Below are positions 2,849 to 54,847 of a stretch of DNA of 58,213 nt, one piece after another (the stretch's first letter is position 1; every line of letters begins with the position of its first letter). This DNA comes from a virus (taxonomy: Duplodnaviria > Caudoviricetes), in IMG/VR virus record IMGVR_UViG_3300043466_000797, positions 1 to 58,213 of that record, one strand, 5' to 3'. The position numbers and the translations under genes are program-made. A model generated the notes under the pieces. That model ran no database searches. It was not told the DNA's origin and saw only the letters and a program-made list of their open reading frames with translations.

Positions 2849-5800
2849 GTCGTATAGATATTAATGTAGTTGCTACTGGCAATTTTTCTACAATAGAAGC
2901 GCAGATTGCTAAATTAAAGGCAGACATTGCTGGGTTAAGTGCTGCTGGATTAGCAGTTAACCCACAGGCTACAAGGTCTATGCAGACCTATATATCTACA
3001 TTCTCAGACGCATTAAATGCTAGTGGTAACTTTACCACAAAGATGGTCAATCTTACCTCAGAGACAGAGAGATTTGGAAGAAGCCTTGAAAGAGGAAATC
3101 TAAGGCTCGGACAATACTTTAGAACAGCCACACAACATATTAGAAGTCAACAAGGAGAAATTTCTAAATTAGCCAAAGAAAACGTAAGGCTAATGAATTC
3201 CAGGACACTCGCTCTTGGTGACGGTAGGGCAATGGTTATTACTCCTACTGGGATTGATGAGGCTATTCATAAACAACAAATTCTTAATCAAGAATATAGA
3301 ATTTTCAGACAAGTTGTTGCAGGAGGATCTACTCAATTAATTAACTGGGGAAAGAATACCCAATGGGCAGGACGCCAATTAACCGTTGGCCTTACTGTAC
3401 CGCTAACCATATTTGGAGCGGCTGCAGGAAAAGTATTTATGGATGCAGATAAGCAACTAACAAGACTTGCTAAGGTTTATGGAGATGCTTCCAAGGGAAT
3501 GACAGACCAGTCTGAACTACAAGCAATCAGACAAGAGACACTTGGACTAGCAAAAGAAATTGCATCTACAATGGGTGTTGCTGTTACAGAAACATTGGGA
3601 TTAGCCGCAGACATTGCCGCTACTGGAAAGCAAGGAAATGAACTTCTCGCTGCAACAAATGAGGCAGTAAGACTATCTGTTTTGGGTGAAGTTGATAGGC
3701 AAGAAGCCATGAAAACAACTCTAGCAATTCAGACAGTATTTAAAAAAGATACCCAGGGTCTTGCAGATTCTATTAACTTTCTAAATGCTGTAGAAAACCA
3801 AACATCTACAAGCCTAAATGACTTGTCTACGGCTATCGTAAAGGCTGGTCCAGTTGTACAAGGTCTTGGAGGATCTGTTGAAGATCTAGCCCTGATGCTT
3901 GTTGCTATGCGTGAGGGTGGAGTTCCTGCATCAGAAGCAGCAAATGCTATTAAATCTTCATTAGGTGCATTGATTAATCCAACTAAGCAGACTACAGAGG
4001 TTCTAAGTAAGTTCGGAATCAATATCAATGAAATAGTCAATAAAAATGCTGGTAATGTTATAGGAACACTTACAGATCTACAATCTGCACTAGAAGGTTT
4101 AGATTCACTTTCTCGTCAAAGAGCAATCGAACAACTTTTTGGAAAGTTCCAATTTTCAAGAATCAATGCTCTTCTAAGCAATTTAAATAAGGCTGGAAGC
4201 CAGACTGAACAAGTCCTAGCCCTTGCTGGCATGAGTGCCGCTGATTTAGCAGCCAATGCTGATAAGGAATTAAAGGTTCTTACAGAATCTACAACAGTAA
4301 GATTCCAAAGAGCAGTAGAAACATTAAAGGCAAATCTTATTCCTATCGGTGAGGTTTTTGTCACTATTGCCACCGTATTGATTAATGTTGGAAATAAAAT
4401 TTTAGACGTATTCAATAATCTTCCAGAACCAATACAAGCACTTTTGAAGGGTCTAGGGTATCTAACCGCCTTTGCTGGCCCACTAATTATGATTACAGGT
4501 GTCCTAGGTAACTTCTTTGGCTATCTAATCAAGGGTATAAGTTTCTTTATGGGAATAAAGAGGGCTGGAAGAGGGATATTCCAGCACATCACAGAAGAGA
4601 CTATAGCCGCAGAAAGTGCGACTCTTTCATTAACAGATTCAGCGTTTAAAGAAGAAGAAGCATTTAAGCAATTAGCAGCAGCAATCGATATGCTAAATGC
4701 CAAACTTGAACAACTAGCACTTAATCTCAGAGAAGCCGCAGGAGCAGGGCAAGGAATTGCTACCATGGCTAATGCTGAAGCATCAGCCCTTGCAGGCGCA
4801 GGCGGGATGTATGGTGAACAAAGATTTAGATTTACAGGTGAGGGTGGAAAAACGAGTGGTATAAGCAAGCCACATTATTATTCCGCCGCTAAATTCCTTG
4901 CTGCTACACGCGAAACAGGTGCCCCAACAGAGTTTGCTGGATTAACTGATGCACAGATTAAGGGTGGATTAAGATCACAGCATATGATTGCTCCAGGTGG
5001 CGAATATGGTCTTATCCAAAGTCAATTAGGAAAGCAAACTGCAATATACAGTAATGAACAAGAAAGACAGGATTTCCTTAGCCAAATAACTGGAATTATT
5101 GGTAAGGGTGGATATACTGTAGATCCACAAGCAGCATTAAAGGCAGTTGTCGCAAGTAGAGAAGATTTTATTAAGAGGCAGGCTGAGTTTAGGGCAAGGT
5201 TAGAAGGACTTGCAGAGTTGCCAAGTGACGTATTAACTAGACTTAGTGCTTCATTAAATGAAGCATCAAAATCTGGTGGCGACGTTGCTGCTCAGGCTGA
5301 AAGGATTGTTTCACAAGCAATCGCAGAGGATAAAGCAGCGACTCGTAAATATGCTCAAACTCGCGCAGAAACAATTGACCATCTATCATCTATGCAGAAT
5401 TTAGGAACAGAAGATTTTGCAAAAGAGGCTGCTCTCTATACTGGCTCTAAAGAAGTTAGTGCTAGGGGGAAACTAACTGCTAAGGGAATGACAGCAGATA
5501 TAACTGCATCATTAGATGGTGCAGTTCAGGTTAGTATGGTGCAGTTAGGATCTCAGTTTGCTGCAGACTCAGAATTAATGTTAAAGACAGCGACAGATCA
5601 AGCGATTGGTCAAAGTCGCAGGACTTTCTTGGCTCAAGCAAGAAAGAATGGTCAAAAACTAGTACAATTTATTGATCGCTCTGGAAATAAATTTATAGCA
5701 GATATATCAAATGGATTAGAAAATGCTGTAGTTTACCAACTTGATGAAAAGGGTAGAGAAATTACAGGAGTTCTTTCAAAATCTCAGGCAAAAAAGAAAG

Positions 5801-49155: not shown

Positions 49156-49360
49156 GGCTCACGATTTTGTGGGTAAGAACAGCCATCGTGGATACTTCTG
49201 GGATGGCTGGGATATCAATAGATGGGTTCCTAATCCTTCAGGATTCATGTCAAAGAATGGCATGTATCGTAATGGCAAGTGGGGAATGTCTTACTCGTAC
49301 CCGCTTCAAGATTCAGGTTCCTGGGAAGTAAAGGTTCCTGCCAATGTCGAATATAATTGA
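49124..49360 (+). CDS. hypothetical protein
   Basis: Trp/Gly-rich ORF in operon. Confidence 0.6.
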   Translation: MMKTLTLNYSEAHDFVGKNSHRGYFWDGWDINRWVPNPSGFMSKNGMYRNGKWGMSYSYPLQDSGSWEVKVPANVEYN

Positions 49361-49697
49361 TGATCTTGGCTTAGATGCCGATAATCTAAAATGGTATCAG
49401 TTGGCTGCATGTATAAATGCTGATATTAATATGTTTTATGATGATTATGAAACAGATAAATTTGTATCTGCACAGGTAGATGAGATGTGTCTTCATTGTC
49501 CAGTTATCAAACAATGCTATAATGAAGGTGTAAGAAATAAAGAACGTGGTGTCTGGGGCGGTGTGTATATGGACCTTGGACGAATAGACAAAGAATATAA
49601 TGCACATAAGACACAAGAAACATGGAAAAGACTGAAGGCTATACATGGATCAAGTATTCTACACAAAAGAAATGGCGAAAGCGATAAGGCAAGTTAA
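49344..49697 (+). CDS. whiB: WhiB-family Fe-S transcription factor
   Basis: W...AAC...C.HCPV...C...GVWGG. Confidence 0.85.
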   Translation: MSNIIDDLGLDADNLKWYQLAACINADINMFYDDYETDKFVSAQVDEMCLHCPVIKQCYNEGVRNKERGVWGGVYMDLGRIDKEYNAHKTQETWKRLKAIHGSSILHKRNGESDKAS

Positions 49698-50582: not shown

Positions 50583-50876
50583 CTGAATATTCCAGACGCA
50601 ATTCTAATAGCACTAATCGGTTTGATTGGTGCTTTATCTACTGGCGCGGTCGCTAAGTTATTTGATTATAGGCTAGGTAGACTCAAGCACGAATTTGAAA
50701 AGGGCGTGCAGGATAAAGCCGTAGAGGTTGAAGAATTAAAAACTCTGAAGCAGGAATTAGAAAATAGAAAAGAAGAAATACGAAGTCTTGAAGAAGAGTT
50801 AGATAGATGGAAGGGCAAATATTACGAGATGCTTGAACATTTAATTAATCTTAAAGGGCAAATAGAAAAAAAATAA
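50583..50876 (+). CDS. membrane coiled-coil protein, probable CTG start
   Basis: GGGGAGA RBS then in-frame CTG giving a full TM helix. Confidence 0.55.
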   Translation: MNIPDAILIALIGLIGALSTGAVAKLFDYRLGRLKHEFEKGVQDKAVEVEELKTLKQELENRKEEIRSLEEELDRWKGKYYEMLEHLINLKGQIEKK

Positions 50877-51667: not shown

Positions 51668-52119
51668 AAACAGCAGTCATATTCGATATGGACGGAACGC
51701 TTGCAGATGTGTCATCTATTCGTCATCATCTGACTAAATATGATGAGGGTAAGCGCCGCGTTATTAAGCATTTCGATAACTTTCATGCTGAATCTGTTAA
51801 TGTTCCTTCTCATAGTCATGTAGTTAATGCTGCTCAGATTGCCCACATACTAGGACATGCGGTACTAGTTGTTACTGCCCGTAAGCATATGTGGAGAAAT
51901 CACACAGCCTGGTGGCTGGCAATGCATGAGGTTCCTAGCGATATGCTAATGATGCGCGGGGATGAAGACAATCGCAAAGACTATGAAGTCAAGAAAGATA
52001 TGCTTGACACACTCCGTAAGGCATACGATATAATTCATGCATGGGATGATAATCCAAGTATTATCAAACTATGGGAAGAAAGTAATATACCAACTACAGT
52101 AGTTCCAGGATGGGATTAA
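51664..52119 (+). CDS. HAD phosphatase (PNK 3'-phosphatase-like)
   Basis: FDMDGTL, VTAR, LMMR..D.RKD..VK, WDD. Confidence 0.85.
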   Translation: MKTAVIFDMDGTLADVSSIRHHLTKYDEGKRRVIKHFDNFHAESVNVPSHSHVVNAAQIAHILGHAVLVVTARKHMWRNHTAWWLAMHEVPSDMLMMRGDEDNRKDYEVKKDMLDTLRKAYDIIHAWDDNPSIIKLWEESNIPTTVVPGWD

Positions 52120-52217
52120 TCATGGACGGAATAGATGACTACTTTGAAATGAAATGGACCAAGCAATAGCCCATTTCTAATTAGCCCCTATGCTACAATG
52201 AGCATAGGGGTTTAATT

Positions 52218-52577
52218 ATGACTAAAAATAATAGAGCAATGATGTTTGATTATATAAACATTAGATTATCAGATATGATATTGGCAATAAATAACAGATT
52301 TGAGCAAAATGAAAAACAGGTAGAAAGAGCAGAAAGAACACTAAATGAAAGATTGGCTTCTGTTAATGAATTTAGATTAGTTCTTACTGATCAGCAAAAA
52401 CTATTAGTAAATAGAACTGAATACCAGAATCTATCTGATCGTGTGGATAGAATAGAATCTAGGCTAAGTCTACTAGAAGGTAGAGGAAAAGGTCTTAGTG
52501 CTGGCTGGGGGTATCTAGTCGGGGCAATTGGTCTGATTGTAGGATTTATAACAATATTAAGTATAGATTTAATATGA
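52218..52577 (+). CDS. coiled-coil protein with C-terminal TM helix
   Basis: Heptads then WGYLVGAIGLIVGFITIL. Confidence 0.65.
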   Translation: MTKNNRAMMFDYINIRLSDMILAINNRFEQNEKQVERAERTLNERLASVNEFRLVLTDQQKLLVNRTEYQNLSDRVDRIESRLSLLEGRGKGLSAGWGYLVGAIGLIVGFITILSIDLI

Positions 52578-52691
52578 CTGGTCAATGACTGGTTATTTTT
52601 TCCGATTTACGAAGATTGTGTGGATTTCTATGATATAATAGATATATAGAGGCACCCCATTCCTTTAAAATAAAACTAAAGGAGTTTTCTG

Positions 52692-53252
52692 GTGCAAGAT
52701 AAGACAAGTAATTTAATTATATGGCTAGTAATTGGAGCGATATTCATCGTTACAGTTGGCGCTCTAATTTTTATGTTTAGTTCTTCCGCAAATGCTGGTG
52801 GAGATAAAGTAAGAATATGTCACGCCACCGCATCACAATCTAACCCATATGTAAACATAGAAATTGATTCTTCAAGTATTGAGAATCCTAATGATAAGAA
52901 GTATTTAAACGGACATGGAGATCATGAAAAGGATATCATTCCTCCATTTTCGTTTAATGAATCATCTTTCCCTGGCATGAATTGGGACGATACTGGTCAA
53001 GTGATCTGGAATAATGACTGTAAAGTAGTCACTCCAACACCTACACCAACGCCCACTCCAACGGAGCCAACTCCAACCCCAACACCAACGGAGCCAACTC
53101 CAACACCAACGCCGACAGAGCCAACTCCAGAACCAACGGAGCCAACTCCTACGCCAGAACCAACGGAGACAAATCCAACACCAATCCCAATCCCAACAGA
53201 CATACCCGCTGGTGGGGGAGGCATGGCTGTGGAAGTCCCCGTTTTAAAATAA
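52692..53252 (+). CDS. exported surface protein with Pro/Thr stalk and IPAGG motif
   Basis: N-terminal signal/TM; KVRICHAT...NPY domain; (PTPTPTE)n; IPAGGGG at 53202-53222. Confidence 0.75.
   Translation: MQDKTSNLIIWLVIGAIFIVTVGALIFMFSSSANAGGDKVRICHATASQSNPYVNIEIDSSSIENPNDKKYLNGHGDHEKDIIPPFSFNESSFPGMNWDDTGQVIWNNDCKVVTPTPTPTPTPTEPTPTPTPTEPTPTPTPTEPTPEPTEPTPTPEPTETNPTPIPIPTDIPAGGGGMAVEVPVLK
53031..53198 (+). repeat. coding tandem repeat (Pro-Thr-Glu)
   Basis: Repeated CCAACGGAGCCAACTCC-like units. Confidence 0.85.
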
Positions 53253-53713
53253 ATGCTGAAATAGTTCCTGTTGGAATAACTTCTAATAACTCAATAGAAA
53301 TACCTGATGATATCTCAAAGGTAGGCATTTATAAATATGGAGCCGCCCCTGGGTCTAATGGGGGATCTACAATTCTCGTGAGTCACCGCGATGGAGTAGG
53401 TTCAGACCCAGGGGCTTTCTATAATCTGGAAACACTCGCTATGGGGGATAAGGTCGATATTTCCTATATCAATTATACCTCACATTATATAATTATTGAC
53501 CGATTTATGACCAAAAAAGATTCTTTTTATAAGAAAGCACCGAAACTTTTCAGGTATAAGGGTCCTCCACAATTAGTTATGATTACCTGTGGCGGCGGGT
53601 TCGATTTTGAAGCGGGATCATACAAGAAAAATGTAATAGTCATAGCAATCCCATTGACTTATTCACATACAAATATATATAATGGTAAACATACAACATT
53701 AATATTTAACTGA
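53243..53713 (+). CDS. class F sortase domain, reached by -1 shift from upstream ORF
   Basis: INAEIVPVG...P.D...VG.Y..G..PG...HRD...F..L..L..GD...LVMITCGG.FD...Y..N. Confidence 0.8.
   Translation, partial: FKINAEIVPVGITSNNSIEIPDDISKVGIYKYGAAPGSNGGSTILVSHRDGVGSDPGAFYNLETLAMGDKVDISYINYTSHYIIIDRFMTKKDSFYKKAPKLFRYKGPPQLVMITCGGGFDFEAGSYKKNVIVIAIPLTYSHTNIYNGKHTTLIFN
53654..53683 (+). promoter_or_regulatory. housekeeping-sigma promoter
   Basis: TTGACT-N18-TATAAT; GAAAGG RBS before 53723. Confidence 0.6.
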
Positions 53714-53722
53714 AAGGTTAAA

Positions 53723-54172
53723 ATGATTATTCGTAATGCTGTGAGATGTAATAAGTGTCAGGAAGTTCTTCAGTCCACCCATGTTCATGACTATGTTCAA
53801 TGTATGTGTCAGGAGACTATGGTCGATGGCGGGAATGAATACTTTAGGTACGGTGGAAATGACGTAGAGACTCTATTCGTAGAAACACATAGTCCATATG
53901 TACCACATTCTGTACAACTTGAGAATAGTGATGTTATTTTAGCCGCCCACCATCCAGATACATGTGTTGGATCTATCTGTGCATTGCATAAGCGAACAGA
54001 CCATGTAATGCGTGATTGGGAGCAGAGCCTTGAAATGATCGGTAAAGTATTCATCATGACAAGAATTTGTCCACATGGCATTGCACATACAGATCCAGAT
54101 GACTTCTTTGTTTATGACATTGGATACTGTAAGGACTGTGAACCCCCTCGTAAAGAGGTTATTTATGTATGA
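53723..54172 (+). CDS. Cys/His-rich hypothetical protein
   Basis: NAVRC.KC...S.H.HDY..C.C....DGG; second CPHG..H.DPD domain. Confidence 0.65.
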   Translation: MIIRNAVRCNKCQEVLQSTHVHDYVQCMCQETMVDGGNEYFRYGGNDVETLFVETHSPYVPHSVQLENSDVILAAHHPDTCVGSICALHKRTDHVMRDWEQSLEMIGKVFIMTRICPHGIAHTDPDDFFVYDIGYCKDCEPPRKEVIYV

Positions 54173-54371
54173 ACGCGCTAAAGTTACTCTAAAAAAACGA
54201 CCTGGAAGCACAGAAACGTTTGATATCCTCTGGGAAGAGGGCGGGGTAGAAAAGAATGTCGGTACAGGACAATATATTGAATCAGCCATCTGGTTTTATA
54301 TGCGGGAAAAAGATCTTGACATTTGGATTGACGATGGAGATAATATAACTCAAATAAGAGGAGATTGGTGA
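54165..54371 (+). CDS. hypothetical protein
   Basis: GAGG RBS; start MYERAK. Confidence 0.55.
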   Translation: MYERAKVTLKKRPGSTETFDILWEEGGVEKNVGTGQYIESAIWFYMREKDLDIWIDDGDNITQIRGDW

Positions 54372-54847
54372 TGCAAGTTTTTCTACCAGAGAGCGATTTT
54401 GACATAGCCGCCCAACAACTAGACACAAAGCGTCTAGTTAAGCAGTTGTTGGAGGGTCGCCAGATTATGACAATTCTAGTCGGTGAGTCTAAGTCTAACG
54501 CTTGGCGCAATCACCCTGCCGTTAGAATGTTTGACGGTCACCCAATTACCCTATATAATTATCTAGCGGCTATCCGCAAGGAGATGGAGCGTCGTGAGTA
54601 TAAGTGGGAGAAGAATTGGCATGAGATTGAGCGCATGGCAGAAGGTATCACAGACACGGGTCTACCGAACTGGATGGTTGACGAGGATACGTTTTATCAT
54701 GTCCTTACTACCCATCGTGGTAGACTATATGAAAAAGCCCCAGAACTTTACCCACAATACAGGGCGGAATATGAAATCTACCAGAACTATGTATGCTGCC
54801 CAGGAAAATGCACATACTACTGGCCCACACACTTAGGAGAAAAATGA
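54371..54847 (+). CDS. pyrimidine-dimer DNA glycosylase/endonuclease V family protein
   Basis: MQ.FLP...LD.KRL.KQ..E..QI...W.NHPAV.M...H...L. Confidence 0.75.
   Translation: MQVFLPESDFDIAAQQLDTKRLVKQLLEGRQIMTILVGESKSNAWRNHPAVRMFDGHPITLYNYLAAIRKEMERREYKWEKNWHEIERMAEGITDTGLPNWMVDEDTFYHVLTTHRGRLYEKAPELYPQYRAEYEIYQNYVCCPGKCTYYWPTHLGEK

Follow-up and report, generated by a model that had tools for sequence, protein, structure and literature searches.

A phage gene that probably joins an exported protein to its own class-F-like sortase by −1 frameshifting

The window analysed here, the 58,213-base IMG/VR virus record IMGVR_UViG_3300043466_000797 (estimated to be ~48% complete), contains a gene in which an exported protein of 186 amino acids (aa), encoded by the zero-frame open reading frame (ORF) at 52692–53252, is very probably extended by a programmed −1 frameshift at the slippery heptamer T TTA AAA into a fusion with a class-F-like sortase domain (−1 frame, 53249–53713). 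The exported protein carries the sequence IPAGGGG, which may serve as the sorting motif of the fused enzyme. For the whole explanation, comprising both the frameshift and the IPAGG substrate, we estimate a probability of roughly 0.55. A reading of this DNA made without database searches (hereafter the sequence-only reading) had proposed that one gene yields a short product and a ~340-aa sortase fusion, an architecture that is now backed by its conservation among relatives. All features of the gene lie on the + strand.

A slippery heptamer abuts the zero-frame stop codon

The last codons of the zero frame are GTT TTA AAA TAA, such that an in-frame heptamer of the X XXY YYZ type, T TTA AAA (53243–53249), directly abuts the TAA stop codon (53250–53252), a configuration that is read directly from the DNA and had been reported in the sequence-only reading. 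The −1 frame has no stop between 53024 and its TGA (53711–53713) and, from 53249 onwards, contributes 154 codons of sortase domain followed by the stop. The first strand of this domain is split by the shift: MAVEVPVLK, with which the domain starts, is encoded in the zero frame (53223–53249), so that VEVPVLK belongs to frame 0 and INAEIVPVG to frame −1, and cellular class F sortases show VRIPAIDVDTVVVPVG at the same position with identical spacing. In-frame X XXY YYZ heptamers occupy 92 of the 17451 codon positions in the ORFs of the window (0.53%), and only 2 of its 80 ORFs end in a heptamer with an immediate stop. In E. coli, U_UU.A_AA.A, one of the Y_YY.A_AA.R heptamers, is shift-prone despite its heterogeneous P-site codon, according to Sharma et al. 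(PMC4066793).

The earliest ATG, GTG or TTG of the −1 frame is the GTG at 53378, two codons ahead of the codon for the catalytic His (53384–53386), which agrees with what had been claimed from the sequence. The sortase part might nevertheless be translated alone from an internal start and be completed in trans by the MAVEVPVLK strand (split-protein complementation). Gene callers do start two relatives (P0121 and P0125) at an internal Met or GTG, and the related locus L015 has an ATG five codons past the junction; however, such starts are not shared among the lineages, the window lacks any ahead of 53378, no Shine–Dalgarno sequence precedes the internal starts and a domain devoid of its first two strands is unlikely to fold. 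We consider this route highly improbable.

The sole conserved flanking feature of the slip site is the abutting stop. For the downstream folds of single sequences, the z-score lies between −2.6 and −2.9 in three lineages and is −1.2 for L008 and +0.5 for L015, and the folds of the first three are moderately stable, but not common to them. The consensus downstream fold has an energy of −7.74 kcal/mol with a positive covariation term. Thus, neither the single folds nor the consensus across lineages revealed a conserved downstream stimulatory RNA structure. On the upstream side, GGGGGAGG is located 21 nt from the slip site; the dnaX rule places a Shine–Dalgarno sequence ~10 nt upstream of the slip site, and a distance of 21 nt is therefore too far.

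These flanking features bear on how the frame is changed. Transcriptional slippage, adding one base within the T/A run, or a slip of the P-site tRNA alone on A AAA would also bring the −1 frame into the product, and both would fit with the lack of a detected conserved downstream structure, with the T6 run carried by L008 and with the stop found immediately after the run in all T TTA AAA lineages. Runs of T4 and A4 are, however, short for polymerase slippage, and the wobble T before TTA is kept in 4/4 DNA-verified lineages, a base that matters for tandem slippage only. We regard recoding by these other routes as rather improbable, and every route would give the same protein. Stops close by matter at some shift sites, as described in PMC5009743.

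Further copies of TTTAAAATAA, the 10-nt signal of heptamer plus stop, are present at 52664–52673, within the 5′ leader of the same gene, and at 50867–50876, giving three copies in the window compared with 0.78 expected (at least three in 5 of 100 shuffles). The ORF at 50622–50873 ends in A AAA AAA TAA, beyond which the −1 frame has no coding continuation.

The probable frameshift signal is conserved among related phages

An indel at the junction, which the sequence-only reading had singled out for checking, is absent from three independent assemblies: contigs from three other DNA runs, belonging to different studies, bridge 53243–53252 with 0 gaps (X2, 52700–53700; X3, 53075–53700; X4, 52783–53409). 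Scans of IMG/VR and of metagenomes of the Joint Genome Institute (JGI) provided 7 distinct junction sequences, and a third IMG/VR scan with a sortase alignment added no further contigs. In 4 of the 7, namely the window, L002, L005 (identical to L013 and L014) and L015 (identical to L016), TTTAAAATAA is identical and is followed by the full −1 sortase frame, which answers the question raised by the sequence-only reading as to whether heptamer and stop are kept together. The codon preceding the signal varies (GTT, GCT, GCT and AAT, respectively), with T always as its last base. L015 confines the shift to the heptamer, as no more than 2 codons of open −1 frame precede the junction there. A −1 shift at this position is likewise required in L008, within CCT TTT TTA ACA TCA AAG, where T TTT TTA or A AAG could act as the slip site. 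At the protein level, 9/9 of the closest homologues end in VPxLK, and more distant ones end in EIPFLTSKPR, EIPFLR, SIPSLK or KISSLK.

By contrast, L006 encodes a 413-aa in-frame fusion that is collinear residue for residue and carries one extra base exactly at the slip site. The sequence-only reading had held that a homologue of this kind would speak for an assembly error or a recent mutation in the window, and formally L006 is such a homologue; its branch, however, is distant and derived, and all of the close relatives retain the shift. L006 therefore validates the fusion reading rather than pointing to an error. A maximum-likelihood tree groups the phage sortases into a single clade (98/95), which divides into two sub-clades; TTTAAAATAA is present in both, and L006 is nested beside L008. 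Based on this placement, the shift is the ancestral state and has long been kept, with the in-frame form derived from it.

The sortase frame remains open for 139–154 codons in every complete lineage and has dN/dS values of 0.19–0.51, at dS of 0.27 to over 1.5, whereas stops abound in the +1 frame over this part; judged from these comparisons, both frames are under purifying selection. Such constraint is hard to reconcile with a broken gene or an artefact, in which a 1-nt deletion or sequencing error would have disrupted an L006-like fusion, leaving the truncated protein as the sole product and the sortase part in decay. That proposal draws on the existence of the in-frame form, one base different at the site, and on L004 (see below), which shows that the sortase part can be lost. 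Against it stand the agreement of the three assemblies, the identical 10-nt signal across lineages with dS of up to about 1.5, the open and constrained sortase frame and the ancestral position of the shift on the tree. On these sequence comparisons it appears largely refuted, and we give it very little weight.

The −1 frame encodes a class-F-like sortase domain

The −1 product matches the Pfam family Sortase (PF04203) with 51.3 bits (cut-off 26.6; E = 1.3e-13). Its best NCBIfam model is class_F_sortase (NF033748) with 82.9 bits, the runner-up reaching 22.3, but the window does not attain the curated class F cut-off of 166 bits. The same profile gives 109.9 bits for the relative L006 and 110.7 and 130.1 bits for the cellular L063 and L097, likewise below 166. 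All of these sequences score far better with class F than with any other model but stay below the curated cut-off, and 'class-F-like' is therefore the safe label. The earlier designation as a class F sortase thus stands with respect to the sortase family and to class F as the best match, but not with respect to the NCBIfam cut-off. An exhaustive search identified 7096 sortase relatives at E ≤ 0.001. The best 150 of these are almost all 200–260 aa in length and align from query residue 2–5 on, and homology therefore reaches the junction itself.

The conserved residues comprise the His of HRD (53384–53386), the Cys of ITCGG (53588–53590) and an Asn (53630–53632). His (HRD) and Cys (TCGG) are invariant columns in an 81-sequence alignment and in 7 phage-type sequences, and the Asn, 14 residues after the Cys, is near-invariant in the window and the cellular class-F-like relatives, such that the three residues named in the sequence-only reading coincide with conserved columns. 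We take the position of the Asn to be that of the Arg in class A sortases. PMC8225981 gives the sortase catalytic triad as His-Cys-Arg; the Arg is not present here, the near-invariant Asn being found instead. In contigs from all three other DNA runs, position 53599 reads T rather than G, a synonymous change in the third position of a Gly codon of the sortase frame.

An AlphaFold2 (AF2) model of the L006 fusion, with a predicted local distance difference test (pLDDT) score of 86.8, shows a sortase fold. Foldseek searches with this model return sortases E, C and A as top matches (E ~3e-10) and 128 matches at E ≤ 0.001. The Met that immediately follows GGGG is where the match to the class F profile starts in L006. 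Together with the cellular class F alignment, this start agrees with the proposal of the sequence-only reading that the first sortase strand spans the shift. A predicted complex between the L006 sortase domain and its own 40-residue stalk-plus-motif segment scored 0.16 relative to a mark of 0.34, in a run without controls, and speaks neither for nor against binding.

The short product carries a domain of a widespread but nameless family

The zero-frame ORF starts with GTG, 7 nt after a Shine–Dalgarno-like AAAGGAG (52678–52684), an arrangement that is shared by a relative, and its 186-aa product ends in IPAGGGGMAVEVPVLK. Residues 1–35 (52692–52796) form a hydrophobic signal peptide or signal anchor ending in SSANA|GG, where the putative cleavage after ANA is assigned by eye; the cellular homologues carry ordinary signal peptides just before the domain. 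There follow a Cys/His domain with the pattern CHAT...NGHGDH...DIIPPF...NW...C (52797–53027), which is conserved across homologues, a Pro/Thr-rich stalk (53028–53201) and the putative sorting motif IPAGGGG (53202–53222), within which AGGGG is invariant in 17 phage-type sequences although the stalk around it is otherwise variable. Beyond IPAGGGG, the short form has 9 residues and the long form the sortase domain. This order of segments is legible in the sequence itself and is the one given in the sequence-only reading.

Of 376 candidates found with the short product, 131 are homologues of similar length at E ≤ 0.001, and there are many longer homologues as well. Homologues of the N-terminal domain are mostly from Actinomycetota, with some from Chloroflexota and Patescibacteria, and the C, H, DIIP, W and C columns are invariant in 92 sequences. 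The domain is modelled by AF2 with a pLDDT of 81.7, and no fold in the PDB matched it at E ≤ 0.001 (best E 1.5), nor did the ESM Atlas return a usable match. No Pfam, NCBIfam or PHROG family matched the domain either. Across loci L017–L172, the pattern CHAT..NPY..NGHGDH..DIIPPF..NW..C defines a widespread nameless family that is often found in tandem and that heads wall-anchored proteins. A search for longer homologues yielded tandem-domain surface proteins and no sortase fusions, a weak negative since L006 itself is absent from that list.

IPAGG resembles the C-terminal signals of cellular homologues

The cellular homologues are wall-anchored stalk proteins whose C-terminal motif, either LPXTG/LAXTG or of the [VI][PAD]AGG type (SVPAGGGPGD..., SIPAGGGGEF... 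and AVPAGDG... being examples), precedes a membrane helix and a basic tail. A class-F-like sortase gene is located within 1.6 kb downstream in 4 of the 12 distinct complete '[VIL]xAG' loci (L024, L063, L097 and L147), compared with 0/20 LPXTG/LAXTG, 0/4 xGAG and 0/17 other loci. Since the homologues with [VI]PAGG-type motifs are the only ones to adjoin class-F-like sortase genes, IPAGG gains support as a sorting motif, and we judge the odds that it is the substrate motif of the fused sortase to be about even on this comparison of sequences. At L024, L063/L066–L069, L097, L147 and L171, an N-domain protein with a [VI]xAG-type C-terminal signal precedes a same-strand class-F-like sortase gene; these loci are candidates for a non-LPXTG class F sorting signal. 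The phage gene likely descends from such a cellular substrate-plus-sortase pair. In this descent, the helix and tail of the substrate and the helix of the sortase itself would have been deleted, leaving the motif for recognition by the fused enzyme.

The frameshift could, however, be real and IPAGGGG be a mere conserved hinge, with a sortase on an anchored stalk acting on host LPXTG/LAXTG proteins or on other phage proteins, and with the short product in a separate role, for instance as a surface domain that is free or acts as a competitor. In cellular class F sortases, too, the first strand is preceded by an N-terminal membrane helix and a long linker, the h-region of the phage protein spans ~22 residues and could serve as an anchor, L006 makes the fusion alone and, with ~48% of the phage genome in hand, other substrates could be encoded elsewhere. 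A hinge would leave unaccounted for the occurrence of the motif at the sorting-signal position in cellular homologues that lack a fused sortase, of which only those with this motif type adjoin a class-F-like sortase gene, and the invariance of AGGGG in an otherwise variable stalk. Moreover, the product of ORF 52692–53252 is the only exported protein of xPAGG or LPXTG type across the 58 kb. We consider a hinge role unlikely, but deserving of attention.

A model for coupled synthesis of substrate and enzyme

We propose that most ribosomes would halt at the TAA at 53250 to release the 186-aa exported protein with its 9-residue tail, whereas a fraction would slip back by one base at T TTA AAA and produce a 340-aa fusion with a complete class-F-like sortase domain. 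The slip could occur in tandem, or with the P-site Lys-tRNA alone while the stop codon waits in the A-site; both modes yield the same junction, ...VPVLK-INAEIVPVG.... The sortase domain would then recognise [IV][PD]AGG in the short product and in its own fusion and cleave there, acting on the short protein in trans and perhaps on itself in cis, such that the domain-plus-stalk is transferred to the peptidoglycan of the infected actinobacterial cell. The frequency of slippage would fix the ratio of enzyme to substrate. That ribosomes slip, and how often, that IPAGG is cleaved, which acceptor is used and what the phage gains are all inferences; as candidate benefits, we suggest surface remodelling, exclusion of other phages or adhesion.

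Several observations weigh against this model. With respect to the motif, IPAGG in the phage protein is followed by neither a membrane helix nor a basic tail, as the sequence-only reading had already remarked, and the protein therefore lacks the canonical cell-wall sorting signal; in addition, the motif precedes the first sortase strand by only a few residues, and 8 of the 12 '[VIL]xAG' loci have no adjacent sortase, although 5 of these 8 have <1 kb of downstream sequence. With respect to the enzyme, cleavage of the signal peptide would leave the sortase without a membrane anchor, and the class F score remains below the curated cut-off. As to the frameshift, the conserved stimulatory structure was not found, and the only RNA contig, X19 (253 nt, from a freshwater metatranscriptome run), covers 52963–53215 with identity to the stalk region and thus ends before the junction, with DNA carry-over being possible. 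Finally, L006 works with the fusion alone, and two products are therefore not strictly required, while L004, a near-twin of L005, lacks ~80 nt of coding sequence for the first sortase strands, downstream of the heptamer: at about 3055–3100 of this contig, T TTA AAA is kept and followed by TAG, and the remaining sortase sequence lies in the zero frame behind the stop. By its sequence, L004 would be a natural variant that probably lacks a working sortase, or else an assembly artefact.

More tentatively, and with less than even odds, we envisage the gene as a self-loading surface-display device. The rare fusion would cut its own IPAG|G and thereby charge the sortase Cys with the domain-plus-stalk. 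The soluble sortase that is set free, with an oligo-glycine N-terminus, would then attach the short product, in many copies, to the infected cell's wall. In the same proposal, [VI]PAGG with a helix and a basic tail behind it would also represent the missing natural sorting signal of a large class F branch in Actinomycetota.

Relation to known systems

In retroviral Gag/Gag-Pol, a −1 programmed frameshift yields an abundant structural product and a rarer enzyme fusion that processes both. As proposed for the window, an X XXY YYZ sequence is located near the end of the upstream frame and the frequency of slippage sets the ratio of the products. Here, however, the system belongs to a bacterial virus, the enzyme is a sortase transpeptidase and not an aspartic protease, the processing is proposed by inference and a conserved downstream pseudoknot or hairpin was not found. 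Engineered self-cleaving sortase fusion tags similarly combine enzyme and recognition motif in one polypeptide, where self-processing is possible, but are man-made and place the motif, a class A LPXTG, after the enzyme.

Among phage genes, the closest parallel in expression is the tail chaperone pair gpG/gpGT, where, as described in PMC5009743, a conserved −1 slip close to the gene's 3′ end yields two proteins, one short and one long, that have their N-terminal part in common. The phage of the window itself has such an overlap (C CCA AAT at 2528). In contrast to gpGT, the extension described here consists of an enzyme domain with its first strand on both sides of the shift, and the product is exported and is no virion-assembly factor.

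Phage sortases were first described in October 2026, in huge phages of the gut, as class B enzymes encoded by separate genes, according to a preprint (bioRxiv 10.64898/2026.10.24.761521). These modules likewise combine a phage sortase with an exported motif-bearing protein, encoded upstream and proposed to be displayed on the host wall, and in the window both components, sortase and adjacent exported motif protein, are found within one gene. According to the preprint, the huge-phage enzymes have the His-Cys-Arg triad, their substrates carry a full signal of PXTG, hydrophobic segment and basic tail, and their hosts are Bacillota. The sortase of the window differs in being class-F-like with Asn at the Arg position, in having its substrate fused by a frameshift and in pairing with IPAGG without helix or tail, and the host would belong to the freshwater Actinomycetota, with a WhiB gene in the phage.

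The cellular class F sortases of Actinomycetota share the HRD, TCGG and Y..N signature and the sortase fold with the phage domain, and some directly follow an N-domain protein with a [VI]PAGG-type tail. Unlike the phage domain, they have a start and a membrane helix of their own. PMC13251363 and PMC8225981 describe the P. acnes enzyme, which acts on LPXTG, as the first characterised class F sortase, report the roles of others as unknown and record no phenotype for a quadruple class F deletion in Actinoplanes missouriensis. In the literature outside subscription journals and supplements, we found neither a frameshift-joined substrate and sortase nor a PAGG-type signal.

Genomic setting of the gene

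The phage origin of the window is supported by its tape measure, tail, terminase and WhiB genes together with the IMG/VR record. PHROG matches identify a tailed phage with a 2139-aa tape measure protein and minor tail proteins, and further include a DnaB-like helicase, a primase, a DNA polymerase, a UvsX-like recombinase and a terminase fragment. The gene for a WhiB-like regulator (49344–49694, PHROG match) points to an actinobacterial host, and the sequencing runs that hold window DNA are labelled as lake or fresh water. Among GenBank phages, no match was obtained by blastn of 52000–54500 or by tblastn of the sortase part.

Immediately upstream, 52218–52577 encodes a 119-aa coiled-coil protein with a C-terminal membrane helix after LSAGWG; it has neither a signal peptide nor a basic tail, and the likeness of LSAGWG to [VIL]xAG is probably due to chance. 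Just downstream of the sortase frame, a DUF7695 gene is present at 53723. The best promoter-like match of the region, TTGACT-18-TATAAT (11/12), is located at 53654–53683, inside the end of the sortase frame. A scan for promoters and terminators around the gene found 9 promoter sites compared with 8.9 in shuffled sequence, and we therefore do not claim a transcription unit of its own for the gene. At the other end of the window, 2232–2845 holds a probable tail assembly chaperone pair in the classical gpG/gpGT arrangement: the ORF at 2232–2567 contains an in-frame C CCA AAT (2528–2534), and the −1 frame continues up to the start of the gene for the 2139-aa tape measure protein at about 2845.

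Implications

Programmed frameshifting in phages and sortase-substrate modules are both known in kind. If confirmed, the gene described here would show a bacterial virus putting programmed frameshifting to a new use, namely to couple an enzyme to its own substrate in a fixed proportion and thereby to apply the logic of Gag-Pol to cell-wall anchoring. It also extends phage-encoded sortases to another sortase class, host phylum and habitat, and it offers a concrete candidate for the recognition motif and the substrates of class-F-like sortases. As a compact module of signal peptide, cargo, stalk, motif and sortase, it may provide a surface-display tool in Actinomycetota.

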